DNA of 64,000 bases from an uncultured Candidatus Saccharibacteria bacterium (GCA_964409615.1 CAYPDT010000001.1:499880-563879), one strand, 5' to 3'; positions 27,614 to 49,648 are shown, numbered from the stretch's first letter. Program-made: numbers and translations. Notes: generated by a model not told the origin, from the sequence alone.

Positions 27614-28867
27614 ATGCGTAAATCAACATTTATATTTATTGTCCTCAGCGGTCTGGCTTCTGTCTTTAACTATGCGGTCTATCCGATACTAGCGCGACTC
27701 CTGGATGCTAACGAATTTGTCCAAATTGCGGTTGCTTTAGCACTTTTCACCCAAATATCGTCGTTCATGCTTTCGATTGTTGCGCTCACTATCGGGCTTT
27801 CCAAGCAAGAAGGTGAGAAAAAATCAAAAGAAACTGTAGAAAAACTACAGGCTATATTGACCCATCTATTTGTGGTGTTAATAATTTGCTTTCTCGCAAC
27901 TTCGCCATTGTTCCTAAAAAGAATCGACCTTCCCGCGCCTCTTTTAGTCCCTATTTGCATAATGCTTGGTTTGTCTATATCTATGTCAATAATTTCAGGC
28001 TACTTAAATGGCAAACAAAAACTCGTAAAGCTAGGGATTGCAATTGCTCTCTCCTCTGGGCTACAGCTCTTGTTCAGTGTTTTGATTGCTGTAATAACCA
28101 AGAGTGGTGCTGCTACTCTTAACGCAATGGCGTTCGGCTCATTTATGGCCATCGTACTGACATACTGGTTTTACCGGAGTGAAAAACTCCCCCAACTCAG
28201 TTCTATTTTTTCTCATGGAATCTCCTTATATCAGGCAAAGTCAGTCCGGTCACTTGTAACATTTACTATTTCCTCAGCTGTTGCGACATTAATTATGAAT
28301 CTACTTCTCATTGCAGATTTGCTGCTTGTTAGTGGTCGACAAGTTGACACCAAACTCTATACCGATATGTATGTAGTCAGCCGGGCAGTCTTCTTTGCTG
28401 GTATGTTGTTTGTTTGGCCCTTCCTCTCAAATATTGATATTCGTAATACTCATCAAATACGTGGGTTATTCTATCGTCTACTGGCACTATTCGTACTACT
28501 AGCCAGTGGTGCAAGTTTAATAATGAGCCTTTTTGGACGACAGGTACTAGAATTGCTTCTTGGGTCTGATTACGGTCAACGAGTTGACCTAAAACAGCTG
28601 GCAATATTAGCTATTGCCTACAAATTCACATTCTTAGTGCTTTCTACACTCGTCTTATTCTTTATTGTCATACGGAGCTACTGGGCAGTAGCTCTACCGA
28701 TTGTCCTAGCGAGTCTTATTGGTCTTGGCCTGCTTATATTTGGCGAGCGCTCAACTACATATTTAGTCGCAAACTTGAATATTACGTCAGCTATTACATT
28801 ATTAATAGGAGCCGTTGGCTTCTTGCAAAAAACTCGCCATTCACCACCAACCTCAAAGGGTGTTTAG
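27614..28867 (+). CDS. Wzx-like (MOP superfamily) polysaccharide flippase
   Basis: 417 aa with about 12 TM segments and no soluble domain, in a glycan-locus context. The call is by architecture. Confidence 0.6.
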   Translation: MRKSTFIFIVLSGLASVFNYAVYPILARLLDANEFVQIAVALALFTQISSFMLSIVALTIGLSKQEGEKKSKETVEKLQAILTHLFVVLIICFLATSPLFLKRIDLPAPLLVPICIMLGLSISMSIISGYLNGKQKLVKLGIAIALSSGLQLLFSVLIAVITKSGAATLNAMAFGSFMAIVLTYWFYRSEKLPQLSSIFSHGISLYQAKSVRSLVTFTISSAVATLIMNLLLIADLLLVSGRQVDTKLYTDMYVVSRAVFFAGMLFVWPFLSNIDIRNTHQIRGLFYRLLALFVLLASGASLIMSLFGRQVLELLLGSDYGQRVDLKQLAILAIAYKFTFLVLSTLVLFFIVIRSYWAVALPIVLASLIGLGLLIFGERSTTYLVANLNITSAITLLIGAVGFLQKTRHSPPTSKGV

Positions 28868-30072
28868 TTAACCGTGTTTCGGGAAACAACAGAAACGAGA
28901 GCTTCGGCATGATTTGCCCATGAGTAGTTCTCTACAACCTTTTCCCAACCCTTTGCCCCCATAGAAGCAGCCTTGGCCGGATTTTTCTGAAGCCTTCGTA
29001 GGATTGGCACTATTGCCTTGGTGTCTTTTTCTTTTGTGTAAAACCCGTCTTCACCGTCTGTAAACAATTTACATACACCCTGACCCTTAGGAATCACAAA
29101 GGTCGTGCCATGTCCGGCCGCTTCTAGAGCCGGCATGCCGAAGCCTCGATCATCATTACTTTGCAGCACAACATTCGCACGTGCATAGTAGTTAGCAAGC
29201 TGAGCTTCAGTTACCTCACCGACAATATCAATTTGCTTCGTAAAACCGCGTTTCTTAACGCTCGCGAAGAACTCGTCAAAATAATCTTTCTCGAGCCATT
29301 TGCCCACCATTTTTATACGTATTTCTGGCATCGCCTCAACCACATCTAAGACATACTCCGGATGCTTACCCCGCTTCCAAGCAGTAGCCATCAGTACATA
29401 GTCACTTTTTTTCAACAACTTTTTGATTGGATGCACCGATGGGTAGATTACCGTAATTTTTTTTGACGGGTTCATTGTTCTAATAAATTTGTTATGTGCC
29501 GGGCCGCCCACCAGTACGGAGTCCATGTTGTTTATTAAGAATTTATCAAGGTGCTTTGCCATAAATTTTAATGTAGCCATAATCGGTGTTAGTACTTTGG
29601 TGCTGTAGACACGCTCAAGAATGTATGATGCCGGATCCCAAATAAATGCCGAGAAACCAATACCCCTTGTTTTCTTGAGGCTAACTGCTGTGAGCGCGGT
29701 ATATGTGCCGTGCACAATCAAATAATCAAACTCTTTTTTCTTGACTACAAAAGGAAGGAGGAATGGATATGTTACATGGAAGCTAGAAAAAAAGTTAAAC
29801 AGTGGGAACTGGAACGATAATCTAAAAAATTTTGGCAAACGTTGGTCAAGATACACAATCGGTACGTCTTCGAGCAAGTCGGCAAAGGCATCGGCCACAA
29901 CAGCTTTTTCGCGCAGAATCACAAGCTTTGCATCTTGGTCCTGCCTACGCAACGCTTTGACTTGTTCGATAGCTATCTTCTCTACACCACCAACATTCAG
30001 GCGATCAATCATCACACCTATCTTGCGACTGTCCTTAGGTAGTAAAGATTTTGATGATTTCTTGTTTTTCAC
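28864..30072 (-). CDS. GT4-family glycosyltransferase
   Basis: KIGVMIDRLNVGGVEK forms the N-terminal beta1/Gly loop, and NDDRGFGMPALEAAGHGTTFVIP is the EX7E-like region. The GTG start at 30072 overlaps the upstream gene by 38 nt. No other in-frame start lies upstream of the first beta-strand. Confidence 0.8.
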   Translation of the reverse strand: MKNKKSSKSLLPKDSRKIGVMIDRLNVGGVEKIAIEQVKALRRQDQDAKLVILREKAVVADAFADLLEDVPIVYLDQRLPKFFRLSFQFPLFNFFSSFHVTYPFLLPFVVKKKEFDYLIVHGTYTALTAVSLKKTRGIGFSAFIWDPASYILERVYSTKVLTPIMATLKFMAKHLDKFLINNMDSVLVGGPAHNKFIRTMNPSKKITVIYPSVHPIKKLLKKSDYVLMATAWKRGKHPEYVLDVVEAMPEIRIKMVGKWLEKDYFDEFFASVKKRGFTKQIDIVGEVTEAQLANYYARANVVLQSNDDRGFGMPALEAAGHGTTFVIPKGQGVCKLFTDGEDGFYTKEKDTKAIVPILRRLQKNPAKAASMGAKGWEKVVENYSWANHAEALVSVVSRNTVN

Positions 30073-31210
30073 GTTTTGTTAGCTCCGGGTTATTACCAAA
30101 GTATAGGCCCTGCTCGTGAATAAGTCCCGCGTTTGAGTCTTTCAAGGCTAGGTGTTTTTGGTGCTTAGCAAAGAATGGTTGCTTGGTCATGTCGCCACCA
30201 ACAATTGGTCGCAGTTCAATTTTACCATTGCAGCGATTTACTAGGTCATCGCGAATCTTCTTAGTCTTGCAGATTACTGGGAAGGCGAAGTTTGAAACAA
30301 AGTCGATGTGGTCATAACGGATAGGATAAAACTTATCGGTCTGATTATAAATTTTATCGGCAATCTCAAGGAAGGTATTCTGGCGAGTCTCGGTAATTTC
30401 TTTAAGGTATGGAATTTGCGTATTGCCAATAAACCCGTTAATTTCTGTTGGTCGTAAGTTATACCCTAAGTCATAGAATGTGTATCGTGAATAAAAGGTA
30501 CTGTTAACTTTATGCTTGTCACGAATTTTCTTTTGTTCCTGTTCCGCCAGGTTGCGGTCCCAGCCATGAGCCCTAACTAAGCGAAGCATGGTCGCCAGCT
30601 CTTCATCGTCAGTACAAATTGCACCGCCCTCAATAGTCGACATATGGTGCCCAACGTAGAAAGAGAATGTACTGGCCAAGCCAAAGTTGCCTAGTTTTTC
30701 ACCCCGGTAAACCGTTCCGAGTGACTCACAGTTGTCTTCTATTAGAATGATGTCTTCTTGTTCACATATGTAGCGTAGTTCGGCGATATCGTCACAAAAG
30801 CCTAATAGGTTAGTTAAGAAAAGAACTCGGATTTCATGCCGTCGTAATGTCTTGCGCAACATCGTACTCGATACATTTAATGTGTCAAGTTCTACATCTA
30901 TTGGTACCGCTGTAAGGCCTAGCTGTATTACGGGCATAACATTGGTCGACCAAGTTAATGCAGAAACACCTACCTTATCGCCGTGTTTGATTCTACCCTC
31001 ATTCAACAATGACTGTATGACGGCCAAGTTGGCTGAACTGCCACTGTTCACAAACACACAATGCTGGCGGCCTTGCCACTTGGCAAATTGTTTTTCAAAC
31101 TTTTCGCATTCCGGACCGAAGCTCATAATCTGAGATGTCTGAATGAAATTTACTAGTTTTTTCTTGGTTTCTGCCTCGTTATGGAAGGTCGATTTAATAA
31201 GTTTGATCAT
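30035..31210 (-). CDS. DegT/DnrJ/EryC1-fold PLP/PMP enzyme of the ColD/E1 sugar 3-dehydratase type (His replaces the Schiff-base Lys)
   Basis: FVNSGSSANL and IEDNCESLG are fold motifs. The active-site stretch is FSFYVGHHMSTIEGG (nt about 30623-30667), where aminotransferases carry SFxxxKxxxxGEGG. TDDEELATMLRLVRAHGWDRNL resembles ColD as I recall it. Confidence 0.75.
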   Translation of the reverse strand: MIKLIKSTFHNEAETKKKLVNFIQTSQIMSFGPECEKFEKQFAKWQGRQHCVFVNSGSSANLAVIQSLLNEGRIKHGDKVGVSALTWSTNVMPVIQLGLTAVPIDVELDTLNVSSTMLRKTLRRHEIRVLFLTNLLGFCDDIAELRYICEQEDIILIEDNCESLGTVYRGEKLGNFGLASTFSFYVGHHMSTIEGGAICTDDEELATMLRLVRAHGWDRNLAEQEQKKIRDKHKVNSTFYSRYTFYDLGYNLRPTEINGFIGNTQIPYLKEITETRQNTFLEIADKIYNQTDKFYPIRYDHIDFVSNFAFPVICKTKKIRDDLVNRCNGKIELRPIVGGDMTKQPFFAKHQKHLALKDSNAGLIHEQGLYFGNNPELTKREKQEIIKIFTT

Positions 31211-31218
31211 CGAGTGAA

Positions 31219-31224
31219 ATTATA
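31219..31224 (-). promoter_or_regulatory. -10 box TATAAT, 8 nt before the ATG at 31210 (leaderless-type)
   Basis: The minus strand reads ggtctaTATAATttcactcgATG. Confidence 0.4.
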
Positions 31225-31304
31225 TAGACCACAAGTACATTTACAAAACATCCTGACCTAAATCACAACAGTATATAATAAAACCACGGAGACAATGTAT
31301 TCAC

Positions 31305-32267
31305 ATGACTAAACAAAGCGGTAACCTTAAATCAATCAGCATAATAATTCCCGTATTCAATGAGCAAGACAACCTTGTTTGGCTTCACCAGAAAATTGAA
31401 AACTTTTTTAAACAGTACAGAAACACCTATACCTGGCACGCTATATATGTAGATGATGGGAGTGGTGATGAATCATTACGAGTTATACGTGAGCTCAAAG
31501 CAAGCCATCCAGAAAACGTAAAATATGTAACTTTATCGCGTAATTTCGGCAAAGAAGCAGCGACAAGTGCAGGACTCTCTGTCGCCGACAGCGATGCTAC
31601 TGTCATTATGGACGCCGACGGACAACACCCGATTGAGCTTGTCTCCACATTCATTGAGCTCTGGGAAAATGGAAACGAAGTAATTGTAGGTGTTCGCACC
31701 AGCAACACAAACGAAGGGTTCCTAAAGCGCTACGGATCCAAAGCATTTTATAAGGTTCTGCAGTTCGTCGGCGGTAAAAATGTAGTGGCCGGTACTACTG
31801 ATTTCAGGCTCATCGACCGTAAGGTAGTTACTGCCTTTAACGAGTTGACTGAGCGAAATCGAGTTACCAGAAATCTTATCGACTGGCTTGGTTTTCATCG
31901 TATTGAAGTTCCATTCAAAGCAGACGAACGACACGCTGGAGTTGCAGCATACTCGTTTCGTAAGCTTCTCAAACTTGCACTTGATGGTATAGTTTCGCAC
32001 TCAACACGCCCGTTAAAACTTATAGCGCTACTGGGCTCAATAATCTCTACCTTGTCTGCCGTGGTGGGAGTAGTGCTTGCAGTTCAAAAATATATACTAG
32101 GCGACCCAATCGGTCTATCCGTAACGGGGAGCGCCTTGTTGGCACTATTCGTAACATTCTTGGTGGGCATTGTGCTGGTCTGTCAGGGGCTTTTAGCACT
32201 CTACCTGGAAAGCGTTTACTACGAAACACAGAATCGGCCTCTGTACATTATTAAAGAAAGTAAATAG
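31305..32267 (+). CDS. GT2-family polyprenol-phosphate glycosyltransferase (GtrB/CsbB-like) with two C-terminal TM helices
   Basis: ISIIIPVFNEQDNL...YVDDGSGDES...IMDADGQHP are GtrB-type motifs, followed by a C-terminal TM pair. GGAG lies 13 nt upstream of the start. Confidence 0.85.
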   Translation: MTKQSGNLKSISIIIPVFNEQDNLVWLHQKIENFFKQYRNTYTWHAIYVDDGSGDESLRVIRELKASHPENVKYVTLSRNFGKEAATSAGLSVADSDATVIMDADGQHPIELVSTFIELWENGNEVIVGVRTSNTNEGFLKRYGSKAFYKVLQFVGGKNVVAGTTDFRLIDRKVVTAFNELTERNRVTRNLIDWLGFHRIEVPFKADERHAGVAAYSFRKLLKLALDGIVSHSTRPLKLIALLGSIISTLSAVVGVVLAVQKYILGDPIGLSVTGSALLALFVTFLVGIVLVCQGLLALYLESVYYETQNRPLYIIKESK

Positions 32268-33391
32268 TGCGCATTACGTGGTTTTCTTGGAAAGATATTA
32301 ATCATCCTCGTGCAGGCGGGGCCGAAAAGGTATCTGATGAAATACGCAAACGTCTTGCCCGTGATGGCCATGAGGTGACGTTAATCACCTCGATGTATAC
32401 CGGATCTACAGCACAAGACAAAGTTGATGGTGTACGGGTATTACGAAGCGGTGGGCACTTTAGTGTGTACTGGCAGGCACGAAAGGTTTTTAAGACCCTA
32501 CCGCAACAAGACTTAGTCATAGACGAGATGAACACCGTGCCGTTTATGGCCACATTCTATAGTAAAAAAACTACCAACATACTTCTTACCTATCAATTGG
32601 CGCGGCAGGTGTGGTTCTACCAAATGTTCTTTCCACTTTCAATTATTGGCTACCTAGCTGAACCGCTATACCTGCGATTGATAAGCAAACGATATCCGCT
32701 GGTACTAACGGAGTCTGAGAGCACCAAAAAAGATTTGGCGCGATTCGGCTTCAATAATTCAAACGTAGAAGTATTCCGTGTGGGTATGGAGACAGTTGCG
32801 GACAAGGGTGGCAAAAAAGAAGGGTTGGCTCAAAAGAAACCTGGGCAAATTGTCTTCTTAGGTGCTTTTCGACCGATGAAACGCCCGATTGATGCAATCA
32901 AAGCCTTCGAAGTTGCACATGCCGTCAATCCAAATCTTTCACTGGTTATGGCCGGGAACAACCATGGTCCTTATGCAGATAAGGTCGCTCGCTACGTCGA
33001 ACAATCTGCCCATAGAAGCGCCATCCATCTTAAGGGTCGTGTTACAGAAGAGCAAAAAAGTAAACTCCTACAAGAATCCCAGGCGATTATTGTAACTTCG
33101 ATAAAAGAAGGTTGGGGCTTGATTGTGACCGAGGCCAATAGTAAAGGCACGCCCGCTGTTGTTTATGATGCAGATGGGCTGCGAGATAGTGTTAAAGACA
33201 AGGTTACGGGCCTCGTTGTTCGTTCGGGTGATACAGGAGCATTAGGTCGAGCCATAGTCGACCTATTAGCCAATCCCGACCTTCTTGTTAAATACAGTAA
33301 GGCCTCTTTACAAGATTCTAGGCAGTACACCTTTGATATCTCTTACCAGGATTTCAAGCATGCGGTCAGCAAGATTATTGACCTTGCATAA
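32267..33391 (+). CDS. GT4-family glycosyltransferase
   Basis: The GTG start overlaps the previous TAG by 1 nt. AGGAEKV is the N-terminal loop, and IIVTSIKEGWGLIVTEANSKGTPAVV is the EX7E region. Confidence 0.8.
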   Translation: MRITWFSWKDINHPRAGGAEKVSDEIRKRLARDGHEVTLITSMYTGSTAQDKVDGVRVLRSGGHFSVYWQARKVFKTLPQQDLVIDEMNTVPFMATFYSKKTTNILLTYQLARQVWFYQMFFPLSIIGYLAEPLYLRLISKRYPLVLTESESTKKDLARFGFNNSNVEVFRVGMETVADKGGKKEGLAQKKPGQIVFLGAFRPMKRPIDAIKAFEVAHAVNPNLSLVMAGNNHGPYADKVARYVEQSAHRSAIHLKGRVTEEQKSKLLQESQAIIVTSIKEGWGLIVTEANSKGTPAVVYDADGLRDSVKDKVTGLVVRSGDTGALGRAIVDLLANPDLLVKYSKASLQDSRQYTFDISYQDFKHAVSKIIDLA

Positions 33392-33409
33392 TTACAGATT
33401 CACATTTGT

Positions 33410-33415
33410 TATAAT
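33410..33415 (+). promoter_or_regulatory. extended -10 TGtTATAAT, 8 nt before the ATG at 33424 (leaderless-type)
   Basis: catttgtTATAATggttactaATG read directly. Confidence 0.45.
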
Positions 33416-33423
33416 GGTTACTA

Positions 33424-34617
33424 ATGACTAAATCTTCTAAAAATGTGGCTAAAATTTTTGTTGATTGTGAAGTTCTTTGCCTGGAGCACTTCAGTGGCAT
33501 CGGCCACTACACTGCAGCCTTAATGCGAGAAGTAGACAAACTGCTTGATTTACCCGAGTATCAGCATTACCAAGTAACCCTTGGGGTGCCTTGGCGATTA
33601 GCATATCGAATACAGCGTTTTAACTTTAAGAACTTTACAATAAAACGAATGCCCCTTGGCCCACGCATTACAAATCAACTCAAAATGCGTAATCTACTGC
33701 CACCTCTAGACAGTATTTTCGGTAAGCAGGTGTACATATTCCCGCACTTTAGCACCTGGCCGACTATGAAAAGTCCAAGTATTCCAGTTATCTATGATTT
33801 GTCATTTGTTCTACACCCTGAATTCTCTGCAGATTTAAATAGTCGCTTCCTTAACAAGCAGACTAAGCTTGCTGCGGAACGTGCGACAAAAATTATCACA
33901 ATCTCGCAGAATAGCAAAAATGAAATAGTCGACCACTACCAGGTTAGCGCAGAAGATGTTTCCATTATCTACCCTATTATTGACGCCGCAGAATTCTACC
34001 CACGAACCGCCGAAGAAATTAAAACCGTACGAGCAAAGTACGGTGTTTTTGGTAAGTACATACTTTTCGTAGGCAATATTGAGCCACGCAAAAATCTTGC
34101 ATCACTTCTTCGTGCTTACTCAATGCTAGACCCAGAACAACTACAAGACTACTCACTGCTTTTGGTAGGCGCTAAAGGCTGGAAAGATGGCGAGATTCAC
34201 GACCTCATCACCGATTTGCAGCGCAAAGGTCTTAAAGTAGTACAACCCACAGGATACGTTACCGATGAAGATATGCCGGCCTTGGTTAGCGGTGCTTCAA
34301 TCTTCACATATGTTAGCCGCTACGAAGGTTTCGGCATCCCCCCAGTAGAAGCCATGTTTTGTGGTACGCCAGTTATATCCAGTGACAACTCTTCTTTACC
34401 CGAAGCCGTAGGCAAAGCAGCACTCATGGTAAACGCGGAAGATATCCAAGAAATTAGCAACGCAATTAAAAAACTCCTGGGGAGTCCTGCACTACAAAAA
34501 GAACTCGTAGAGGCTGGCTTTACTCACATTAAGAATAAAATGTTTGACCCCGTACAAGGCGCCCAGACACTTCTTGAACTAGCAGACCAAGCAGACAAAA
34601 AAGGAGCACGCAAGTGA
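33424..34617 (+). CDS. GT4-family glycosyltransferase (mannosyltransferase-like)
   Basis: ILFVGNIEPRKN and FTYVSRYEGFGIPPVEAMFCGTPVISS are GT4 motifs. Confidence 0.85.
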   Translation: MTKSSKNVAKIFVDCEVLCLEHFSGIGHYTAALMREVDKLLDLPEYQHYQVTLGVPWRLAYRIQRFNFKNFTIKRMPLGPRITNQLKMRNLLPPLDSIFGKQVYIFPHFSTWPTMKSPSIPVIYDLSFVLHPEFSADLNSRFLNKQTKLAAERATKIITISQNSKNEIVDHYQVSAEDVSIIYPIIDAAEFYPRTAEEIKTVRAKYGVFGKYILFVGNIEPRKNLASLLRAYSMLDPEQLQDYSLLLVGAKGWKDGEIHDLITDLQRKGLKVVQPTGYVTDEDMPALVSGASIFTYVSRYEGFGIPPVEAMFCGTPVISSDNSSLPEAVGKAALMVNAEDIQEISNAIKKLLGSPALQKELVEAGFTHIKNKMFDPVQGAQTLLELADQADKKGARK

Positions 34618-34835
34618 GTATCAGAAAAATAATCGCCAATATTCCTGTTATTGGCTACATCGCCCGATGGTTTTCTGGAATTGCATTTTTACCACGTCAC
34701 CTTTCTAGATTCCATCACGGCATAGACCGAGATGCCAAGAAAATAGCTGGCCTAGAGGCAGGATTGCTGCGGGCCAATAGGCAGATTATCGAATTAGAAG
34801 AAAAACTCGACAACCTGCGACACCAGAGCAAATAG
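34614..34835 (+). CDS. small hypothetical protein (73 aa) with an amphipathic N-terminus and a coiled-coil tail
   Basis: The GTG start overlaps the upstream stop (GTGA). I recognised no family, and coding status is uncertain. Confidence 0.4.
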   Translation: MSIRKIIANIPVIGYIARWFSGIAFLPRHLSRFHHGIDRDAKKIAGLEAGLLRANRQIIELEEKLDNLRHQSK

Positions 34836-34876
34836 CCCTGCTCCTTACATTCACGGTTACTCCACTCCAAGAGTAT

Positions 34877-36055
34877 CTATTTGGATTTAACTGCGACCGT
34901 AAAACCTGGGTCAACTGGATATGGCAGATGACGACCTTTTCGGATTTTAAAACTAGCAGCATCGTTCCACCAATCAGTAACCGTGATTGCATCACCCAGC
35001 AGGATCGCCGGGTCAACCAAATAGTCTCCGTCGCTCAAGACATTGGGTAAAGTCCAGGTAAATTCGGTTTTTTCGCCAGCGGTGGTTTTTGCAACGCTAA
35101 TGTTCTCTATTTTCGTGTTAGTTCCTGCGATTTCCTTGCCAGATACATCTCGAATTCTAATTCCAATAATTGTCGATAGGTTGTCAACGTAGGCTTCTGT
35201 GAGCTGTGTAATTTTTATGTTTTGTGGTGTAACTTGCACTGATATAGTGCTCGTCTTAACTGATTCATCACCCCAACGCTCACCGTCCACTGCCTCCGTA
35301 GTTGGTTTTACTCCATTAAAAAGCTGTCTGTATAGCTGCGTGATACGCTCTGGGGTGCTAATGGCTACCAGCTCGCTCTTTTCTATTAAGGCCACCCGGT
35401 CGCAGTATTCTTGTACAGCCGACATGTCATGGCTAACGAATATGACTGTCTTGGAATCCTTTTTGAGCCGCTTGAAATACTCGTAACATTTTCGCTGGAA
35501 GTCTGCATCCCCGACTGCCAAAACTTCGTCAATAAGCAACACATCTGCTTTAGCACGAACTGCCATAGAAAACGCTAGCCTCACCTGCATACCCGATGAG
35601 TAATTCTTAAGCTGCTGGTCCATAAACTTATCGAGCTCGGCAAACTCTACGATTTCTTGATACTGCTGTTCGATTTCTTTGCGGCTAAACCCAAGTAGGG
35701 CGCCATTGAGATAAACATTTTCTCGCCCGGTGAGCTCTGGATTAAAGCCAACACCAAGCTCAATAAAAGGAACGAGCTTACCTTGAACAGTGATTTTACC
35801 CTTGTTAGGCTGGTATATGCCGGCTATCATTTTCAAAAGCGTGCTTTTACCACTTCCGTTGCGCCCAACAATGCCAAAGAATTCACCCTTTTTTATATCA
35901 AAGTTAATATCTTTAAGTGCATGCTGAACATCTTTTTGCTTTTCACCTTTTGACTTCAAGAAGCCAGTTAAAAGTGTCTTCAGGGTACCAGCGCGACTAC
36001 TGGTGTAGTTAAAGTTCTTGGAAACATGACTAATGGTAACGGCATTTTCTGACAT
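34877..36055 (-). CDS. polysaccharide/teichoic-acid ABC exporter ATP-binding protein (Wzt/TagH type) with a C-terminal glycan-binding-like domain
   Basis: Walker A is GIVGRNGSGKSTLL, the signature is YSSGMQVRLAFS, and Walker B is VLLIDEVLAVGD. A beta-rich C-terminal extension of about 140 aa follows. Confidence 0.9.
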   Translation of the reverse strand: MSENAVTISHVSKNFNYTSSRAGTLKTLLTGFLKSKGEKQKDVQHALKDINFDIKKGEFFGIVGRNGSGKSTLLKMIAGIYQPNKGKITVQGKLVPFIELGVGFNPELTGRENVYLNGALLGFSRKEIEQQYQEIVEFAELDKFMDQQLKNYSSGMQVRLAFSMAVRAKADVLLIDEVLAVGDADFQRKCYEYFKRLKKDSKTVIFVSHDMSAVQEYCDRVALIEKSELVAISTPERITQLYRQLFNGVKPTTEAVDGERWGDESVKTSTISVQVTPQNIKITQLTEAYVDNLSTIIGIRIRDVSGKEIAGTNTKIENISVAKTTAGEKTEFTWTLPNVLSDGDYLVDPAILLGDAITVTDWWNDAASFKIRKGRHLPYPVDPGFTVAVKSK

Positions 36056-36858
36056 TACACTTGCTCCGCAAAGTATCGTGACTGTGACTTAAAGTAAATG
36101 ACCGAAATGACTAGAATCACCAGGACAATAGTCAGGGGTAATAACCGCATAGTCGGATTGGCATAGATACTACTAATCGTTTGGGTTTTAGGTGTTATTA
36201 GCACATACCGTGCGTCTTGGACTATCTGAGCTACTGGGTTAATCATGAGGACCTTAGCTGCAGCTACCGGTACTTTGCTAAGGGGGTATAGGAGAGGTGT
36301 AGCATAAAATGCACCCTGCATAACCACGTCCCAAATATAGGTAATGTCTCTGAATCGCACGAAAGCGGTGCTCAAGAAAAAACCAAGCGAGAGAGCGAAT
36401 ACAAACAATTCCAGGACTAACAAGGGGAGAAGTATTGCCTCTGGTCGCAAATCAACTTTATTAACGTACATAAAAACACCTACAACCAGCAGATTGAGTA
36501 CGAGGTTTATAAGAGCTGACACTGAATTCGCTAAAACAATGATGTATTTTGGAAAGTTAATCTTTCGAATCAAATCACCGCTAGAAACTATTACACTCAC
36601 ATTACCAGTGGTTATCTCGATAAAGAAGTTCCAAAGCACTATACCCAGCAACAAGTACACCGGATAGTGCGGCACATCGCGCCCGATATCTAGGAAGCGC
36701 GTAAACACAATATAGAGAATGACAAATATAGCCAACGGCCGTAGCAATGACCAAATGTAGCCAAGTACCGAACCCTGGTACCGTAGCTTAAAGTCAGTCT
36801 TGACTAGCTGTCTTAAAAGAATTATTGGATATCTGTAGCGTTGGGTAATATTTTGCAC
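36055..36858 (-). CDS. ABC-2 type polysaccharide exporter permease (Wzm/TagG type)
   Basis: 267 aa with 6 TM segments. Its stop overlaps the ATPase start by 1 nt. The start is GTG. Confidence 0.85.
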   Translation of the reverse strand: MQNITQRYRYPIILLRQLVKTDFKLRYQGSVLGYIWSLLRPLAIFVILYIVFTRFLDIGRDVPHYPVYLLLGIVLWNFFIEITTGNVSVIVSSGDLIRKINFPKYIIVLANSVSALINLVLNLLVVGVFMYVNKVDLRPEAILLPLLVLELFVFALSLGFFLSTAFVRFRDITYIWDVVMQGAFYATPLLYPLSKVPVAAAKVLMINPVAQIVQDARYVLITPKTQTISSIYANPTMRLLPLTIVLVILVISVIYFKSQSRYFAEQV

Positions 36859-36909
36859 TTCATCTTATTTTATATCTCTTTAGGCTATGCATCAATGTGA
36901 GTTTACATC

Positions 36910-36915
36910 TATACT
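36910..36915 (+). promoter_or_regulatory. -10 box TATACT, 6 nt before the ATG at 36922 (leaderless-type)
   Basis: catcTATACTaataggATG read directly. Confidence 0.4.
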
Positions 36916-36921
36916 AATAGG

Positions 36922-37857
36922 ATGAAGAAAACTATACTTGTCGTCGGCGTAAATGGATTTGTAGGTAAGCACCTTGCAAAGGAACTGCATGATGCAGGCT
37001 TTGCAGTCTATGGAACCGGACTCGACCCCGAAGCCGCAAGTGAAATAAAAGACTACGTCGACAGCTACTCTCAGTGCGACCTAACAGAGATAGAACAAAT
37101 TGCTAACCTACAACTTGAAGACATCGATGGCGTGATAAACCTTGCCGCCCTCGCTACCCCAAGCCAATCCTCAATACAACCAGAGCTATATAACAAAGTA
37201 AACGTACTCACCCACACTAACCTTTTGGACCGATTGGTTGAACTCAAGAAAAACATACGTGTTTTAGCCATTAGCACTGGTGCAGTGTACGACAGCAACC
37301 AACCAATGCCACTGACTGAAGATAGTACTTTAGTCACCTCAGGCTCTCCATATGCCATGAGCAAACTACAAATGGAAGAAAAGATTGAGAAATACCGAGA
37401 GTTGGGCTACGAAATAATCATCGTTCGCCCGTTTAATCATACCGGCCCAGGTCAAGGCCCAGGCTTCATAGTCCCCGACTTGACCATGCGTGTGATTAGA
37501 GACAACAAACTTGTGGTTGGTCCCTTAAATACACAACGCGACTACACTCATGTAAGCGACGTAGTGCGTGCATACCGAACGTTAATCGAACATCCAGAGG
37601 CCCTAAAGTACCATGTTTATAATGTCTGCTCCGGCGTAGCCACGTCGCGTGACGACCTAATCAAAACTATAGAAGATACTACCGGCAAACATAATCTAGA
37701 GATAACAGTCGACCAATCACTCGGCCGACCAAGCGACCCACTTGTGCTCTTTGGCAGCCACGACCGACTAACAGCCGAAACCGGCTGGCAGACAACCAAG
37801 ACTGTCGGTGAGACTGTTTCGGATTATGTTGCCTGGGCTCAATCCCAAACAACATAA
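36922..37857 (+). CDS. extended SDR, GDP-4-keto-6-deoxy-D-mannose reductase (Rmd)-like
   Basis: VGVNGFVGKHL, SPYAMSKL, VRPFNHTGPGQ and YNVCSG parallel the Rmd pattern I recall. Substrate specificity is not provable from the sequence. Confidence 0.7.
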   Translation: MKKTILVVGVNGFVGKHLAKELHDAGFAVYGTGLDPEAASEIKDYVDSYSQCDLTEIEQIANLQLEDIDGVINLAALATPSQSSIQPELYNKVNVLTHTNLLDRLVELKKNIRVLAISTGAVYDSNQPMPLTEDSTLVTSGSPYAMSKLQMEEKIEKYRELGYEIIIVRPFNHTGPGQGPGFIVPDLTMRVIRDNKLVVGPLNTQRDYTHVSDVVRAYRTLIEHPEALKYHVYNVCSGVATSRDDLIKTIEDTTGKHNLEITVDQSLGRPSDPLVLFGSHDRLTAETGWQTTKTVGETVSDYVAWAQSQTT

Positions 37858-37889
37858 TCAGTTAGTTTTTCCAAAAGACTAGGGCTAAC

Positions 37890-38927
37890 TTATTTTGCCT
37901 GTGCCTGTAAGTCGTGTTCTACCATCAGCTTCACTAAACTAGGGAAGTCAACTTTGCGCTCCCAGCCTAATTCTGTTTCTGCCTTTGTTGGGTCGCCTAG
38001 CAATAAATCCACTTCTGCAGGGCGGTAAAATGCCGGGTTTATCCGTATACGAATCGCTCCGCTTGCCGCATCTTTACCAACTTCGTCGGCGCCAGTGCCT
38101 TCCCAGGTAATATCGACACCAATCTCTTTAAAAGCAAGTTCACAAAACTCACGAATAGAGTGCGTTTCGCCGGTAGCCAGCACATAATCTTCTGGGGTAT
38201 CTTGCTGTAGCATACGCCACATACCTTCTACATAGTCACCGGCATAGCCCCAGTCACGCTTAGCGTCTAGGTTACCCAGCTCAATAACATCTTGCTTGCC
38301 GTTCTTGATCTGCGCAACAGCCTTACTAATTTTGCGCGTTACAAACTCTGGGCCACGGCGTTCACCTTCGTGATTGAACAAGATTCCGCTCAGTGCAAAC
38401 ATATCATAGCTCTCACGGTAGTTCTTAGTAATCCAGTGACCGTATAGTTTAGCCACGCCGTAAGGACTGCGAGGGTGGAAGGAAGCTTCTTCGGTATAAC
38501 CTTTTTCTGGTCGGTTATAATCTAGGCCGCCGAACATTTCACTCGTAGAAGCTTGGTAGAATCGTGTCGTTTTTTCGAGGCCCGCCAAGCGGATAGCCTC
38601 GAGAACATTCAGCACACCCTTACCCGTAACGTCAGCAGTTAGTACAGGGTCTCGGAAAGAGTAGCCCACGTGACTAATTGCTGCTAGGTTATATACCTCG
38701 TCAGGCTTAATTTCTTGCATAGCACGAGTTAGGGCAGACAGGTCCAGTAAATCTGCCATCACAAGTTCGACATATGGCATCTCTTCTTTTACAGCCTGGT
38801 ACCGTGGATGGCTTGCCTCTAGCTGACCACGAATAACGCCATATACTTGGTATCCCTTTTCATGGAGTAGTTTTGCTAGGTGACCACCATCTTGTCCGGC
38901 AATTCCTGTAATCAGTGCTTTTTTCAA
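37890..38927 (-). CDS. gmd: GDP-mannose 4,6-dehydratase
   Basis: KKALITGIAGQDGGHLAKLLHEKGYQVYGVIR, ASTSEMFG and SPYGVAKLYGHW are canonical Gmd motifs. Confidence 0.95.
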   Translation of the reverse strand: MKKALITGIAGQDGGHLAKLLHEKGYQVYGVIRGQLEASHPRYQAVKEEMPYVELVMADLLDLSALTRAMQEIKPDEVYNLAAISHVGYSFRDPVLTADVTGKGVLNVLEAIRLAGLEKTTRFYQASTSEMFGGLDYNRPEKGYTEEASFHPRSPYGVAKLYGHWITKNYRESYDMFALSGILFNHEGERRGPEFVTRKISKAVAQIKNGKQDVIELGNLDAKRDWGYAGDYVEGMWRMLQQDTPEDYVLATGETHSIREFCELAFKEIGVDITWEGTGADEVGKDAASGAIRIRINPAFYRPAEVDLLLGDPTKAETELGWERKVDFPSLVKLMVEHDLQAQAK

Positions 38928-38928: not shown

Positions 38929-39378
38929 CTATTCTCCTTCTAAATTACGACGTGAGTCTTGTTGGTGACGAAACACAAAAACATGGAACAGTATATAGTT
39001 CCAAACCATAATACAACCCACCGTACCCATTTTAACAAGTATGCGGGGTAATAGGTTATGTTTCTCGTTAATTTCTAAACATAGGTAGGTAAAGCCCGTA
39101 TTCCACAAAAAAAGCCCGATAAATAGGGGTAGTGATTCCGTTATGCGGCGAGCTTCTTTGTGACGCTTGCTAAACCTAAGCTGATTGAGCGTGAAAGAGA
39201 TGATAAAACCAGCCACAATACCAGCCGTGGTAGCAATTAGCAGGTTGTGGCTGAATCGATCAACAAACAGCAACGTACTATAGTCGGCCGCAAAAGCACA
39301 GGCTCCAGACAATCCAAAAAGCAGTAAATCTACTTTGTGGTCGGCAATCAATGCACGTATTCGTTGTACTAGTTTCAT
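38929..39378 (-). CDS. GtrA-family membrane protein (second copy)
   Basis: 149 aa with four hydrophobic segments and WNYILFHVFVF near the C-terminus. The gene lies directly upstream of gmd. Confidence 0.7.
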   Translation of the reverse strand: MKLVQRIRALIADHKVDLLLFGLSGACAFAADYSTLLFVDRFSHNLLIATTAGIVAGFIISFTLNQLRFSKRHKEARRITESLPLFIGLFLWNTGFTYLCLEINEKHNLLPRILVKMGTVGCIMVWNYILFHVFVFRHQQDSRRNLEGE

Positions 39379-39407: not shown

Positions 39408-40742
39408 TCATCGATTGGTGGCTATTTTTGACTTGGTCCTAGTGGTCATAACTAACCCAGCCAGCCCCCACCATGTGTAGGCAACCGACTCGTTGGACCA
39501 AATATGTACAAGAATATTGGTAAGTGCCAGCCCAGCGAACGCTGCTAATAGAGCGGTGGCATATGCTGAATCACCTGTTGCACGATATAGTCTTACTGCA
39601 ACCAAGATAAGAATTGCCAGGAAGAGGGTAAGGCCTAAGACTCCAACTTCAGTAGCAACTTGCAGGTAATAATTTTCATTAAGCTGGGTTCCTTGCACGT
39701 TGTTACGGATTGAAGCCAGTCCCGCACGCCCCGGCCCCAGACCAGCTGGATTATGCGCTATCTTTACAACCGATTCGCGCAAAAACCTAACACGCAATTG
39801 GTTTGGGTCTTCCAGTGAAGTGCTCTGGTCGGCATGAAAAATAACATTTTGCACAAAGTAACTATTGCGCAGCGCAAAGGCAGATGCCAAAAACCCAATG
39901 GCAGCGACTGCCAGCACAACCAATCCAACTCTAAACTGTTTACGGGACAGTTTTACGTGACTTCTGCCCACAAGCGCAGCTGCACAAGCCAGGGCAACAA
40001 CCAACCCTAGTAGTGCACTCCGTGAAAAGGTTAGCAGCAAACACAGGCCAGCCATTAGGCTAACCCCAGACCAAATTAACTTTGCTCGCTTGGCGCTCTT
40101 TTGGCGCCATGCCATCGCCAAGCTCATCACGATTATCAGATAAGACCCCAGGGAATTTGGATCACGCAGGGTAGACATAACACGCTCAAGATCCGGCTTG
40201 TCATCAATAAAGAATGCCGGCAAAACACCGTTACTCCTGACAAATCCCAAATGTGTAAGTGCGTCGTTCGGTAATAGCACATATTGTATAACCCCGAATA
40301 AAGCCACCACGGTGCCAGCAACCAGAGAAATCAGAATAGAGGCTTGTAGAATGTTTCGTTTTGGAAATGTTTTTACCAACAACCATGCATACAAGAAAAA
40401 AACTAGGAATCGTAAATTATAGGTGACGCCAAGAACTTCGGCATCGGTGTCGGTTGGTCGCACTAGTGCAAGAAGTAGCGTAAGCGCTGCATATAGCACA
40501 ATCACCAGAACAAGCTTGTTTTTCAACCACTCTTTAAACCAAGATTGATGGAAGCTCGCTAACATAATTGAACAAAAACCGAACACTAACACTATGTCTT
40601 TGAGAACTTTCATGAGCGCGAGCCCACCAATATTAGCGCCAATCACCGTTGAGATAAATATATGGAACGGCATATACGCCAGCAATCCGTAAAATATCTT
40701 AAGACTGTGTTCTTGAAGCGCGTTTACTATTTTTTTCTGCAT
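39408..40742 (-). CDS. O-antigen ligase/polymerase-like (Wzy_C domain) membrane protein
   Basis: 444 aa with about 11 TM segments. LLLTFSRSALLGLVVALA plus a following loop is typical of the Wzy_C family. Confidence 0.65.
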   Translation of the reverse strand: MQKKIVNALQEHSLKIFYGLLAYMPFHIFISTVIGANIGGLALMKVLKDIVLVFGFCSIMLASFHQSWFKEWLKNKLVLVIVLYAALTLLLALVRPTDTDAEVLGVTYNLRFLVFFLYAWLLVKTFPKRNILQASILISLVAGTVVALFGVIQYVLLPNDALTHLGFVRSNGVLPAFFIDDKPDLERVMSTLRDPNSLGSYLIIVMSLAMAWRQKSAKRAKLIWSGVSLMAGLCLLLTFSRSALLGLVVALACAAALVGRSHVKLSRKQFRVGLVVLAVAAIGFLASAFALRNSYFVQNVIFHADQSTSLEDPNQLRVRFLRESVVKIAHNPAGLGPGRAGLASIRNNVQGTQLNENYYLQVATEVGVLGLTLFLAILILVAVRLYRATGDSAYATALLAAFAGLALTNILVHIWSNESVAYTWWGLAGLVMTTRTKSKIATNR

Positions 40743-40768: not shown

Positions 40769-41875
40769 ATGAATATCGTTATAGATGCCCGTAATCGTCC
40801 GTCTAGCACGGGGCGCTATACCGACCGACTGCTGGAACATTTGCAAAAAATAGACACAGATAATAGCTATACTGTCCTTTTACAGCCATCCGATACCTGG
40901 AGGCCGACAGCCAAAAACTTCAATACCCTCCCCTGCCCGTATCAGCAATTTTCGATTAGCCTCAAGGAACAGGTTGGATTTACTCGACTGCTTCGTAAGT
41001 TGCGGCCCGATGTAGTGCACTTTACCATGACCCAGCAACCACTTTTTTACAGGGGCAATATCGTAACGACTACCCACGACCTAACAATGCTTCGCTTTAC
41101 CCGAGCAGGGCGACATTCTAAGTTGTTCCACGCTCTTCGGATGGCTCTATACCGTTTGATGTTTTGGTGGAGCCATAAGAAAAGCACCAAAATTATTACC
41201 GTCTCAAAATTTGTTGCTTCAGACCTGACAAAACTTCAGCCATCTGTAAAAAACAAGATTACTACAATATATGAGTCCAGCGAGCCGCCTGTTTCGCAAA
41301 AAGCTGAGGCGGTCGAAGGCGTTGGTAAACAATTTATCATGCATGTGGGTAGCCCGTTCCCTCACAAGAACATACCCCGACTCATCGAGTCGTTTGAGCA
41401 GATTGTCGAGACTCATCCCAAACTACAGTTAGTACTGGCAGGTAAGCCCGAGTATTACTTTGGGCAACTACAAAAACAAATTGATGAAAGCCCCGCTAAA
41501 CAAAACATTATTGTCACTGGTTTCGTGAGTGACGCTCAGCTTAAATGGCTCTACCAATATGCCATTTGCTATGTACTGCCATCATTAAGTGAGGGCTTTG
41601 GGCTTCCTGGTCTTGAGGCGATGGCCCATAAGTGCCCCTTAGTTAGCAGTAATGCAACCTGCCTACCTGAGGTGTACGGCGATGCCGCTCTATACTTCAA
41701 CCCGCTAGACGTGGAAGACATGACCTTAAAAATAGAGCGAATACTATCCGACAACCAACTAGCGTCGCTATTAAAACTCCGTGGCGAAACTCAACTCAAA
41801 AAATATTCATGGGAGCGCATGGCCGAACAGACACTGGCAATTTACAATGAAACGAATCACTCATCAGAATTGTGA
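40769..41875 (+). CDS. GT4-family glycosyltransferase
   Basis: FIMHVGSPFPHKN and CYVLPSLSEGFGLPGLEAMAHKCPLVSS are GT4 motifs. Confidence 0.85.
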   Translation: MNIVIDARNRPSSTGRYTDRLLEHLQKIDTDNSYTVLLQPSDTWRPTAKNFNTLPCPYQQFSISLKEQVGFTRLLRKLRPDVVHFTMTQQPLFYRGNIVTTTHDLTMLRFTRAGRHSKLFHALRMALYRLMFWWSHKKSTKIITVSKFVASDLTKLQPSVKNKITTIYESSEPPVSQKAEAVEGVGKQFIMHVGSPFPHKNIPRLIESFEQIVETHPKLQLVLAGKPEYYFGQLQKQIDESPAKQNIIVTGFVSDAQLKWLYQYAICYVLPSLSEGFGLPGLEAMAHKCPLVSSNATCLPEVYGDAALYFNPLDVEDMTLKIERILSDNQLASLLKLRGETQLKKYSWERMAEQTLAIYNETNHSSEL

Positions 41876-44528: not shown

Positions 44529-44993
44529 CTACGCCTCGTCGGCTATGGCCTTGAGCACAATGTGACGGTCTCGACCTTCGCCTACCGACTCTGTCTGTAA
44601 GCCATATTCACCAGCAACCTTGTGGACCGTCCGCCGATCGGCGGCGTTCATGGGTTTTAGAGCCATATCTTTGCCCGACTCTTTTACGTGTGTAATCCAT
44701 TCTTTGGCAGCTTCGGCTAATCGGTCAGCCCGACCTTTTTTGTAATCTGCCACGTCCACGCTAACGCGAGAGACGGAAAAACCATTATTCTTTAGGGCAT
44801 TGCTCACCATAAACTGTAGGGCTCGCATGGTTTCGCCCTGTTGGCCAATCAAAAACCCATTGAGGTAGGTGGATGGTATATTGAGCTCAATAACCTCATC
44901 TTCACTATTAGTCGCATGAATATCGGTATTAAGTCCAAAGAACGATAGTAAGTCTTCAAGATACTTCTTGGCATAAACTATTGAATCTTCCAC
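44529..44993 (-). CDS. jag: Jag/KhpB-like RNA-binding protein (KH + R3H domains, no Jag_N domain)
   Basis: GFLIGQQGETMRALQ is KH-like, and MNAADRRTVHKVAGEYGLQTESVGEGRDRHIVL is an R3H domain. The position downstream of yidC is conserved. Confidence 0.85.
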   Translation of the reverse strand: MEDSIVYAKKYLEDLLSFFGLNTDIHATNSEDEVIELNIPSTYLNGFLIGQQGETMRALQFMVSNALKNNGFSVSRVSVDVADYKKGRADRLAEAAKEWITHVKESGKDMALKPMNAADRRTVHKVAGEYGLQTESVGEGRDRHIVLKAIADEA

Positions 44994-45004
44994 GGTAGAA
45001 CCTC

Positions 45005-45943
45005 CTACTTTTTACGCTTTTTATTGCCCTTCTTGTTAGCTTTGGTTTTTGTTTTTTTTGGAGGAATTATCTCTGCTTCGACAATGTTTTTTGCACCCTT
45101 AGATGTAGTGGTGGCGGTTGTGGTGGCCATCATCTCGTCTTTATCTTTATTAAGGACGCGGGACTGCTGAATGAAGGCTACGAGGCCACTAGTAAGCCAG
45201 TAAAGCGATAACGAAGCGGCAATATTGACGGTCACTAAGAAGATAAAGGCCGGTAGCATGTAACGGGTACTTCGAGACACGGCTGCATTAATATCTGCAG
45301 TGTCAGCCTTCTTGCCTTCACCTGCCTCGCTCAACAACTTGCGAAGACTTTGCTTTTGTCCGTCATCAGGCATAAGCTGCTTCGCTTGGTAGTACTGCAC
45401 AACGGCGCTAGCAGCTACAATCACCATGGCAGGCCAGTAGATGCCGCCCGTCTTGCCAATAGCAGAGCGCGTAAGATCAACAAAGCCAAGCAGTGTGCTA
45501 TCGAAGCGACTTATGTCGGCGGCAAGTTTTTCAATCCATGGCAGGCCGGCAATTGCAGGGTAAGAAAAATTAACGATTGCACGAGTGTCGTTAACAATAC
45601 GGTGTAAACCACTATACAAACCAATGAAGATTGGAATCTGAACAATCAACAGACCTACGCTTGAGAAAGGGTTAATTTCTCGCTCTTTGTATAACTCCAT
45701 CATCAACAGCGATTCTTTTTGTCGGTCACCGGCTGCTGCTTTTTTGATACGCTTGAGCTCGGGCTGAAGTTCGCGCATTGCTTTGGCTTGGTGAAGCTGC
45801 TTCTTAACAAGTGGCCACATAAGCAACCTGACCAAGACGGTGAACAGAATAATACTCAGGCCGAAGTTATGGCCAGGTAAAAGTGCATAGATTAGCACGA
45901 GTAGGTTAAAAATCGGTTGGACAATAAGCGTCGTAAACATCAA
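45005..45943 (-). CDS. yidC: membrane protein insertase YidC (short monoderm type) with a Lys-rich C-terminal tail
   Basis: ILFTVLVRLLMWPLVKKQ, MMELYKEREINPF and the rnpA-yidC-jag synteny. The tail reads KKTKTKANKKGNKKRKK. Confidence 0.9.
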   Translation of the reverse strand: MMFTTLIVQPIFNLLVLIYALLPGHNFGLSIILFTVLVRLLMWPLVKKQLHQAKAMRELQPELKRIKKAAAGDRQKESLLMMELYKEREINPFSSVGLLIVQIPIFIGLYSGLHRIVNDTRAIVNFSYPAIAGLPWIEKLAADISRFDSTLLGFVDLTRSAIGKTGGIYWPAMVIVAASAVVQYYQAKQLMPDDGQKQSLRKLLSEAGEGKKADTADINAAVSRSTRYMLPAFIFLVTVNIAASLSLYWLTSGLVAFIQQSRVLNKDKDEMMATTTATTTSKGAKNIVEAEIIPPKKTKTKANKKGNKKRKK

Positions 45944-45981
45944 AACTCCTGGTTATTCACCTTATTTTACCATGCACTTCT

Positions 45982-46341: not shown

Positions 46342-46358
46342 ATATGTAGTATACCGTT

Positions 46359-46390
46359 AATACGCCCCGCTTTTTTAAGTGGGGCGTATT
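46359..46390 (-). terminator. stem-loop between rpmH and rnpA (possible attenuator)
   Basis: AATACGCCCC...GGGGCGTATT forms a 10-bp perfect stem with a 12-nt loop, 17 nt upstream of the rnpA ATG. No U-tract follows. Confidence 0.35.
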
Positions 46391-46416
46391 GTTCTAGCTA
46401 AAAAGTTTCTGGCAGC

Positions 46417-46554: not shown

Positions 46555-46560
46555 AGTTGT

Positions 46561-49612: not shown

Positions 49613-49648
49613 ACCTAGGCGTGGGCAGCTAAGGTACACTAAGGGTAT

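Follow-up and report, generated by a model that had tools for sequence, protein, structure and literature searches.

We analysed a 64-kb stretch of DNA (hereafter, the window) from Candidatus Saccharibacteria (TM7, Patescibacteria; G+C content of about 45%), which amounts to about 9% of a genome of about 0.7 Mb and whose closest public loci are metagenome-assembled genomes of Candidatus Saccharibacteria. Profile scans of its open reading frames (ORFs) revealed an envelope-glycan region spanning 1.6 to 44.5 kb. Among its products are BacA, a ligase of the LytR-CpsA-Psr (LCP) family and an initiating transferase (Bac_transf). The region also holds many genes for glycosyltransferases of families 4 and 2 (GT4 and GT2) and for large polytopic membrane proteins, and its sugar genes specify a cupin resembling phosphomannose isomerase (PMI), a HAD-type phosphomannomutase (PMM), ManC, Ugd, a UDP-xylose synthase, and a block comprising a ColD-type dehydratase, Gmd and an Rmd-like reductase. 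It adjoins jag (R3H/KH)-yidC-dnaA-dnaN-recF (44529..50710), the chromosomal origin, and this origin-side location recurs in L038 to L040 of a comparison set of more than 40 related loci, labelled L001 onward (L001 = CAZVTA01; L002 = RXKC01). Our subject is the ColD-type gene and the GT4 gene behind it, a cassette that sits on a predicted GDP-D-rhamnose pathway and probably serves to make a 3,6-dideoxy sugar, possibly by an undescribed GDP-linked route.

The ColD-type protein carries the catalytic histidine of sugar 3-dehydratases and lacks Fe-S cysteines

The gene at 30035..31210 (minus strand) is an intact ORF for 391 amino acids, the same length as ColD, and its product matches the Pfam family DegT_DnrJ_EryC1 (PF01041; 209 bits, residues 13 to 388) over its full length. 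Pfam, PDB and Foldseek matches together with alignments mark it as a ColD-type nucleotide-sugar 3-dehydratase dependent on pyridoxamine or pyridoxal 5'-phosphate (PMP/PLP). The closest solved relative found with HMMER was ColD of Escherichia coli O55 (2GMS; E = 2.9e-59), followed by E1 of Yersinia (3BCX; E = 3.5e-42), a putative NDP-ketosugar 3-dehydratase (9WVY; E = 1.8e-34) and GDP-perosamine synthase (3BN1; E = 4.9e-26). The relation to ColD and E1 dehydratases proposed in a preliminary description of the locus is borne out by these matches. When Foldseek was run against the PDB with an AlphaFold model of the protein, the 12 best matches were all ColD chains (E = 3e-25; template modelling score, 0.76), with GDP-perosamine synthases behind them and E1 at rank 20. 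GDP-perosamine synthases, the next-closest folds and also behind ColD among the sequence matches, use the same GDP-ketosugar as ColD.

A Lys-to-His swap (His188 in ColD, His220 in E1) is the hallmark of the 3-dehydratases (PMC8987622; bioRxiv 10.1101/2021.09.04.459008), and the preliminary description had reported such a swap here. In the HMMER alignment to PDB chains, the segment FSFYVGHHMSTIEGG, which begins at residue 182 and has FSSFYSHHIATMEGG as its counterpart in ColD, places its first His (His188) in the column of the catalytic His188 of ColD; that column is fixed by the mutant ColD chains 2R0T (H188K), 3B8X (H188N) and 3GR9 (S187N/H188K). A true DegT aminotransferase paralogue from L003/L033 reads SFYPGKNLG at this site, with Lys in the His188 column, and every one of the 32 aligned orthologues from the candidate phyla radiation (CPR) keeps the HH pair. 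That the protein might be an aminotransferase or an inactive relic, with no dehydratase activity, is next to negligible. The clade is named "DegT/DnrJ/EryC1/StrS aminotransferase" at NCBI, and SpnQ does transaminate when its reductase is absent (PMC8987622), but none of the 32 orthologues has the Schiff-base Lys, purifying selection on the clade is strong (74 to 95% identity over hundreds of metagenomic proteins), and the ORF is intact and full-length.

The six residues reported by Cook et al. 2006 to anchor PLP in ColD (Gly56, Ser57, Asp159, Glu162, Ser183 and Asn248) are kept in the window protein together with Arg219 and Arg331, as they are in every CPR orthologue with a residue in the respective column (31 to 32 of the 32 aligned). 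E1 has Cys in the Arg219 column, where the window protein keeps Arg, and its Fe-S cysteine segment DCYCAPGCDNTCKK aligns with AHGWDRNLAEQ, which is free of Cys, as in ColD. Because the Fe-S cysteine segment is absent, we assigned the protein to the ColD type and not to the E1 type. Among the window ORFs scanned, there was no Fer2 or FNR-type domain and no E3-like reductase, nor was there any CDP- or dTDP-glucose pathway gene, cytidylyl- or thymidylyltransferase, rfbF or rfbG. An E1-type reading was dropped on the missing Fe-S cysteines, the Arg at the E1 Cys column and an RfbH score of half the cut-off, and the lack of E3 and CDP-glucose genes in the window further rules it out. The preliminary description had spoken of a "ColD/E1-type" enzyme and left the His position and the Fe-S ligands to an alignment; the alignment confirms the His and finds no E1-type cysteines, and with Arg219 kept, no E3-like neighbour and ColD chains as the nearest folds, the ColD half of that label holds and the E1 half falls.

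Judged by its sequence, the product belongs among the sugar 3-dehydratases of the ColD type, which are free of Fe-S, and has a predicted 3-dehydratase activity. It forms a clade separate from both ColD and E1 and is a new, uncharacterised member of a known family. This clade is very large, with more than 7,900 proteins below E = 1e-40, the best 120 of which are all at least 74% identical. In addition to the NCBI name, the JGI name "CDP-6-deoxy-D-xylo-4-hexulose-3-dehydrase" is in use for it. Neither "aminotransferase" nor a CDP-linked E1 dehydrase is a label that fits the predicted activity, and the present assignment would correct the database names of all these relatives.

The window encodes a single 4,6-dehydratase, Gmd

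Gmd is encoded at 37890..38927 (minus strand); it scores 440.4 bits with TIGR01472 (cut-off, 415) and has the motifs ASTSEMFG (STSE) and YGVAK (YxxxK). The supply of GDP-mannose is encoded farther away on the same strand by genes for ManC, a mannose-1-phosphate guanylyltransferase (14112..15161; PF00483 and PF22640), the HAD-type PMM (13349..14104; PF08282 and PF03332) and the small PMI-like cupin (12367..12816). Genes for the four steps named in the preliminary description are all present in the window, although the PMI-like match is weak (30 bits with PF01050; cut-off, 23.6). Gmd is the sole 4,6-dehydratase in the window. The short-chain dehydrogenase/reductase (SDR) at 16163..17194, which we considered as an overlooked ColC or an additional 4,6-dehydratase, was dropped as a candidate: it is a UDP-xylose synthase (human UXS1, 2B69; E = 2e-94) that adjoins Ugd. 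The ugd and UDP-xylose synthase genes (16163..18428, minus strand) overlap by about 95 nucleotides as called, and they point to UDP-xylose as another activated sugar that supplies this region of envelope genes.

Gmd shares a cluster with the ColD orthologue in nine syntenic loci, and in L028 and L031 it lies directly upstream of it, followed by an Fcl/ColC-like gene (NF047922, 429 to 442 bits). These arrangements bear on whether the dehydratase might use a CDP-, dTDP- or UDP-linked 4-keto-6-deoxyhexose and be functionally unconnected to Gmd, a possibility that we consider improbable. It would agree with the JGI name of the clade, with RfbH as the best NCBIfam model, with an SFY-x-small-HH motif nearer to E1 than to ColD, and with the non-Gmd SDRs that adjoin some orthologues. 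Against it stand the direct adjacency of Gmd in L028/L031, the absence of the Fe-S cysteines that E1 and SpnQ require, the nearest solved structures (ColD and GDP-perosamine synthase), and the lack among the scanned window ORFs of CDP- or dTDP-glucose genes, the corresponding nucleotidylyltransferases, a second 4,6-dehydratase and an E3-like reductase.

Two groups of SDRs in other loci bear on the nucleotide specificity of the ColD clade. Directly upstream of the ColD orthologue in L021 (9064-9999), L022, L024 and L008 (9024-9950) lies a family of SDRs marked by an unusual motif, ASTSHVYG; these proteins, from Levyibacteriota and other CPR loci, have His where 4,6-dehydratases carry Glu or Asp. 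L021 also encodes two SDRs with an STNKVYG motif, which we take to be typical of CDP-tyvelose 2-epimerase.

The neighbouring reductase is Rmd-like and not ColC-like

Divergent from gmd lies the gene for an extended SDR (36922..37857, plus strand) with STGAVY and YxxxK motifs. PDB matches, a tree and sequence motifs point to a predicted Rmd-like GDP-4-keto-6-deoxy-D-mannose 4-reductase. Among solved structures it comes nearest to two Rmd enzymes, 2PK3 and 6X3B (E of about 1e-29), with about 30% identity to characterised Rmds, and a neighbour-joining tree makes it sister to the characterised Rmds of Pseudomonas aeruginosa and A. thermoaerophilus (2PK3, 6X3B); with the GDP-fucose synthase model it reaches only 30 bits. 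STGAVY and GFIVP stand where Fcl-like proteins have the Cys of SSC(I/V)YP and the His of SHVIP. By these features the enzyme is Rmd-like and not ColC-like, lacking the epimerase Cys/His pair of fucose and colitose synthases, in agreement with the preliminary description. A metagenome scan with this protein as the query returned only SDRs of 22 to 25% identity and was uninformative.

We then looked for a conventional partner of ColD. A tblastn search of the 64-kb window with five Fcl/ColC-like queries gave only weak matches to two other SDR genes and no Fcl/ColC-like gene, and no Fcl-like gene was found within 10 kb of ColD in the 9 syntenic loci or in 3 further ColD-positive loci. The pathway could still be the ordinary one to GDP-L-colitose, with a ColC/Fcl-type 3,5-epimerase/4-reductase encoded outside the 64 kb and the Rmd-like enzyme making GDP-D-rhamnose only; the finding would then shrink to a conventional colitose pathway, albeit in an unusual host. 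The canonical gmd-colD-fcl-like trio in the Saccharibacteria loci L028 and L031 speaks for this, as do seven to eight more CPR loci in which the ColD orthologue is coupled with a diverged Fcl-like SDR, the abundance of Fcl homologues in Saccharimonadales and the small share of the genome that the window covers. We nevertheless regard it as unlikely, though far from negligible: where Fcl-like partners are present they adjoin ColD, none lies in the window or within 10 kb of ColD in the 12 loci of the same context, and, as a weaker point, none of the best 120 of more than 8,000 Fcl homologues was placed on the contigs of the window, L001, L002, L009, L011, L012 or L013.

A strain-variable ColD cassette sits on a conserved core

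Members of the ColD clade occur in three settings. Class A comprises the gmd-colD-fcl-like order of L028 and L031. In class B (Roizmanbacteria and others), ColD stands beside a diverged Fcl-like SDR, further SDRs and methyltransferases. Class C comprises the window, L001, L002, L006, L009 to L013, L015, L045 and one JGI contig; here ColD is followed by a GT4 gene within a GT2/GT4/Wzt/Wzm/Rmd-like/Gmd cluster that has no Fcl-like gene. The ColD-like protein of the window is 91% identical to that of L001 and 89% identical to that of L002, and the Wzm/Wzt arrangement is kept in L001 to L015 and L038 to L045.

Loci L038 to L040, from three other Saccharibacteria, encode Rmd-like orthologues of 48 to 52% identity in an origin-proximal Wzt-Wzm-Rmd-Gmd-GT4 cluster, and no DegT gene was found within 10 kb in any of the three. 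L038 is gene-for-gene syntenic with the window, with an unrelated GT4 in place of ColD and its downstream GT4. Because these loci keep the core without ColD, and because Rmd-like proteins from ColD-positive and ColD-negative loci interleave in the tree, the Gmd/Rmd/GT4/Wzm/Wzt module is a conserved core, a D-rhamnan-type cluster by gene content, and ColD with its downstream GT4 is a strain-variable accessory cassette. The same interleaving led us to drop the idea of a specialised Rmd subfamily in ColD-positive genomes. Since Rmd-like orthologues occur in ColD-less clusters, the Rmd-like enzyme cannot be called a partner dedicated to ColD, and GDP-D-rhamnose is well supported as its predicted product; depending on the stereochemistry at C4, 6-deoxy-D-talose is a possible outcome.

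The GT4 gene directly downstream of colD (GT4a; 28864..30072, minus strand; Pfam Glycos_transf_1) likely has its real start at an ATG near 30012, about 22 nucleotides past the ColD stop codon, and no terminator-like site was found in this junction. Scanning for promoters and terminators gave no enrichment relative to shuffled sequence; a single promoter-like site lies upstream of colD. In the majority of the loci from Saccharibacteria and Levyibacteriota, colD has a GT4 gene behind it, and the cassette is 74 to 78% identical between these two groups, compared with 35 to 63% for the Rmd-like protein within Saccharibacteria. Because the cross-lineage identity is far above that of the Rmd-like protein within one lineage, the comparison suggests horizontal spread of the ColD-GT4 cassette.

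The Levyibacteriota loci L003/L033 (5.8-8.8 kb) additionally encode an FdtA-like isomerase, a hexapeptide acyltransferase and the Lys-containing DegT aminotransferase just upstream of the ColD orthologue. These genes resemble a 3-acetamido-3,6-dideoxyhexose set, and two deoxysugar branches thus appear to lie side by side.

Other genes of the cluster

Export is represented by wzm, for an ABC-2 permease of a polysaccharide exporter (36055..36858, minus strand; PF01061, 59 bits; galactan Wzm/KpsM models), and wzt (34877..36055, minus strand), for an ATPase with a C-terminal carbohydrate-binding Wzt_C domain (PF00005 and PF14524, the latter 52 bits). The C-terminal domain of Wzt is 36% identical to that of L038 and 60% identical to that of L001, compared with 78% and 85%, respectively, for the ATPase domain. 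This faster divergence hints at different chain termini among close relatives; it does not correlate cleanly with whether ColD is present.

Next to wzt, on the plus strand, lies a remnant of about 90 amino acids of an S-adenosylmethionine (SAM)-dependent methyltransferase (34617..34877), recognised by tblastn with the 333-amino-acid methyltransferase of L038 (31% identity over 93 amino acids). It corresponds to the C terminus of the enzyme, whose gene is intact at this position in L038, L006, L009 and L010, and the presumed chain-terminating methyltransferase is lost in the window, L001 and L002. The idea that a dideoxy sugar replaces a methyl cap as the chain terminator found no support: most ColD-positive relatives retain the methyltransferase, and the divergence of the Wzt C terminus does not track ColD.

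Two GT4 genes of the conserved core lie on the plus strand at 33424..34617 (Pfam; 47 to 74% identical orthologues in ColD-positive and ColD-negative loci) and 32267..33391 (Pfam; orthologues in both kinds of locus), and a third is found at 40769..41875 (plus strand; Pfam; orthologues in L038 to L040). Divergent from colD is a gene for a GT2 polyprenyl-phosphate glycosyltransferase resembling PgfS/ArnC (31305..32267, plus strand; NF047588, 222 bits, and NF007986, 152 bits, both below cut-off), with a 70% identical orthologue in the ColD-less L038. Upstream of gmd, on the same strand, are genes for a small GtrA-family membrane protein (38929..39378; PF04138, 49 bits) and a Wzy_C or O-antigen-ligase-like membrane protein (39408..40742; PF04932, 47 bits). 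The Bac_transf initiating sugar-phosphate transferase (5335..6768, plus strand; PF02397, 189 bits) and the LCP ligase (3501..5249, plus strand; PF03816, 130 bits) are encoded in the same envelope-glycan region, and the LCP ligase probably attaches the polymer to the wall.

A gene at 41970..44516 (plus strand) specifies an 848-amino-acid polytopic membrane protein with a C-terminal PIG-L/LmbE-type deacetylase domain, for which the related loci retrieved gave no orthologue. Past recF (50727..63924, minus strand), the window holds a type IV secretion-like gene set of Gram-positive type, including a VirB4/TraG P-loop ATPase (56688..58604) and a PrgI-family protein (59604..60659). The same set encodes a protein with a phage-tail-lysozyme domain (52301..53587), a VanY-domain protein of 1,028 amino acids (53592..56678) and large proteins without a Pfam match.

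A candidate GDP route to a D-configured 3,6-dideoxyhexose

The gene content suggests the following pathway. ManC and PMM would supply GDP-mannose, which Gmd would convert into GDP-4-keto-6-deoxy-D-mannose and the Rmd-like 4-reductase into GDP-D-rhamnose; several GT4 enzymes would assemble the chain, to be exported by Wzm/Wzt with its carbohydrate-binding domain. The ColD-type enzyme, for which we infer GDP-4-keto-6-deoxymannose as the substrate, would use PMP and His188 to strip the 3-OH off the Gmd product, yielding GDP-4-keto-3,6-dideoxy-D-mannose. It would regenerate PMP from glutamate, as described for the mechanism of ColD (PMC8987622), with no Fe-S cluster or partner reductase. The Rmd-like enzyme, acting without C5 epimerisation, could plausibly reduce this ketosugar to a D-configured GDP-3,6-dideoxyhexose, the candidates being GDP-3,6-dideoxy-D-arabino-hexose (tyvelose-like) and its D-lyxo C4 epimer. 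Transfer of the ColD-derived sugar probably falls to the adjacent GT4, which would place it on the rhamnan as a cap or branch. Of the products forecast in the preliminary description, GDP-D-rhamnose is upheld, and the D-configured 3,6-dideoxyhexose hinges on whether the Rmd-like enzyme accepts a 3-deoxy ketosugar.

Several observations weigh against this pathway. The window protein is only about 36% identical to characterised ColD, compared with about 30% to E1; it passes no curated equivalog model, the best being RfbH (NF011936) with 216 bits against a cut-off of 423; and its AlphaFold model is of moderate quality (predicted local distance difference test [pLDDT] score, 74; predicted template modelling [pTM] score, 0.78), with low-confidence active-site loops. 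Orthologues from CPR phyla outside Saccharibacteria have no recognisable Gmd within 10 kb, and in several such loci an orthologue of 65 to 74% identity adjoins non-Gmd SDRs, for example those with the ASTSHVYG motif; the GDP assignment is therefore not airtight for the whole clade. The Rmd-like enzyme forms no ColD-specific subfamily and bears no sequence sign of accepting a 3-deoxy substrate, and Fcl is common enough in Saccharimonadales that a ColC/Fcl gene may lie beyond the window.

The 4-keto-3,6-dideoxy sugar might also be transferred as such, or be processed by an unrecognised enzyme of the cluster, with no reduction at the nucleotide level. No dedicated second reductase co-varies with ColD, the GT4 alone doing so, which fits this course; against it, a predicted GDP-ketosugar 4-reductase is encoded 6 kb from ColD, and 4-keto-3,6-dideoxyhexoses are not known to occur in glycans. 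We hold it to be highly improbable. The explanation that best joins the observations, a rhamnan core with a ColD/GT4 cassette whose product the Rmd-like enzyme reduces to a D-configured dideoxyhexose, is in our judgement somewhat more probable than its negation. The fuller statement, that Saccharibacteria make GDP-linked tyvelose or its D-lyxo isomer with Gmd, a ColD-type enzyme and an Rmd in double duty, by means of a cassette mobile among CPR bacteria, we put forward only tentatively and consider doubtful as it stands.

To our knowledge, 3,6-dideoxy-D-lyxo-hexose has never been observed, and the CDP-glucose/E1/E3/epimerase path is the only route to tyvelose that we know of. In the literature searched, no paper tied Saccharibacteria to colitose or to any other dideoxyhexose, neither GDP-tyvelose nor GDP-paratose nor GDP-abequose was mentioned, and no surface glycan of any Patescibacteria/CPR bacterium was found; gmd and rmd of Patescibacteria appear in the literature as annotated genes only (PMC12911398). 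CPR epibionts depend on surface contact with a host bacterium, and the locus predicts for one of them a D-rhamnan-type wall polysaccharide bearing a strain-variable 3,6-dideoxy sugar. Reduction of the ColD product by the Rmd-like enzyme, if it occurs, would give GDP-tyvelose or the corresponding C4 epimer, a new nucleotide sugar made from GDP-mannose by a three-enzyme route of use for glycoengineering; tyvelose would then be made bypassing the CDP-glucose route.

Comparison with known systems

The nearest known system is the Gmd-ColD-ColC pathway of E. coli O55 and Yersinia pseudotuberculosis. The window protein shares with ColD the fold, length, His188, PLP anchors, Arg219 and Arg331 and the absence of an Fe-S motif, and its gene is likewise linked to Gmd and GDP-mannose supply. 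It differs in sequence (about 36% identity), whereas the Campylobacter jejuni orthologues shown to be isofunctional are 62 to 67% identical to ColD (PMC10440746). It also has Gly for Ser187 and Val for Tyr186, and a Tyr stands one residue before the latter, which is where E1 has it. At the level of the pathway, the window cluster has an Rmd-type 4-reductase and no ColC-type epimerase/reductase, and it is a Wzm/Wzt wall-polysaccharide cluster of a Gram-positive-like CPR host as opposed to an O-antigen locus. The Gmd-ColD-Rmd combination without ColC is predicted to be a new variant of the colitose pathway.

With E1/RfbH and E3 of CDP-3,6-dideoxyhexose synthesis, the window protein has in common the Lys-to-His swap, the SFY-x-x-HH motif and the DegT fold, and RfbH is its best NCBIfam model. 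Unlike E1, it has no [2Fe-2S] cysteine segment, has Arg at the E1 Cys and is about 45 residues shorter; its score is half the family cut-off, and neither E3 nor CDP-glucose genes accompany it.

The common polysaccharide antigen (CPA) D-rhamnan locus of P. aeruginosa (gmd, rmd, wbpX/Y/Z, wzm, wzt) resembles the core of the window in the clustering of Gmd and an Rmd-type enzyme with several GT4 enzymes and Wzm/Wzt, a likeness of gene content alone and not of the GT4 proteins. We also count as a likeness the methyltransferases that adjoin Wzt in most relatives of the window. The window host differs in having no outer membrane, and its cluster has an additional LCP ligase, GT2 polyprenyl-phosphate transferase, GtrA protein and ColD cassette.

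The GDP-3,6-dideoxyheptose pathway of C. jejuni offers the closest parallel to the proposed reduction, in that a ColD homologue works with stand-alone C4-reductases. It runs through a C4,6-dehydratase, a PLP-dependent C3-dehydratase, a separate C5-epimerase and a C4-reductase, and it differs in its heptose substrates, in reductases from another SDR branch, and in natural products that are L-configured owing to the epimerase. When the epimerase was left out in vitro, the ColD homologue and the C4-reductases gave D-configured products, GDP-3,6-dideoxy-D-arabino- and D-lyxo-heptose (PMC10440746).

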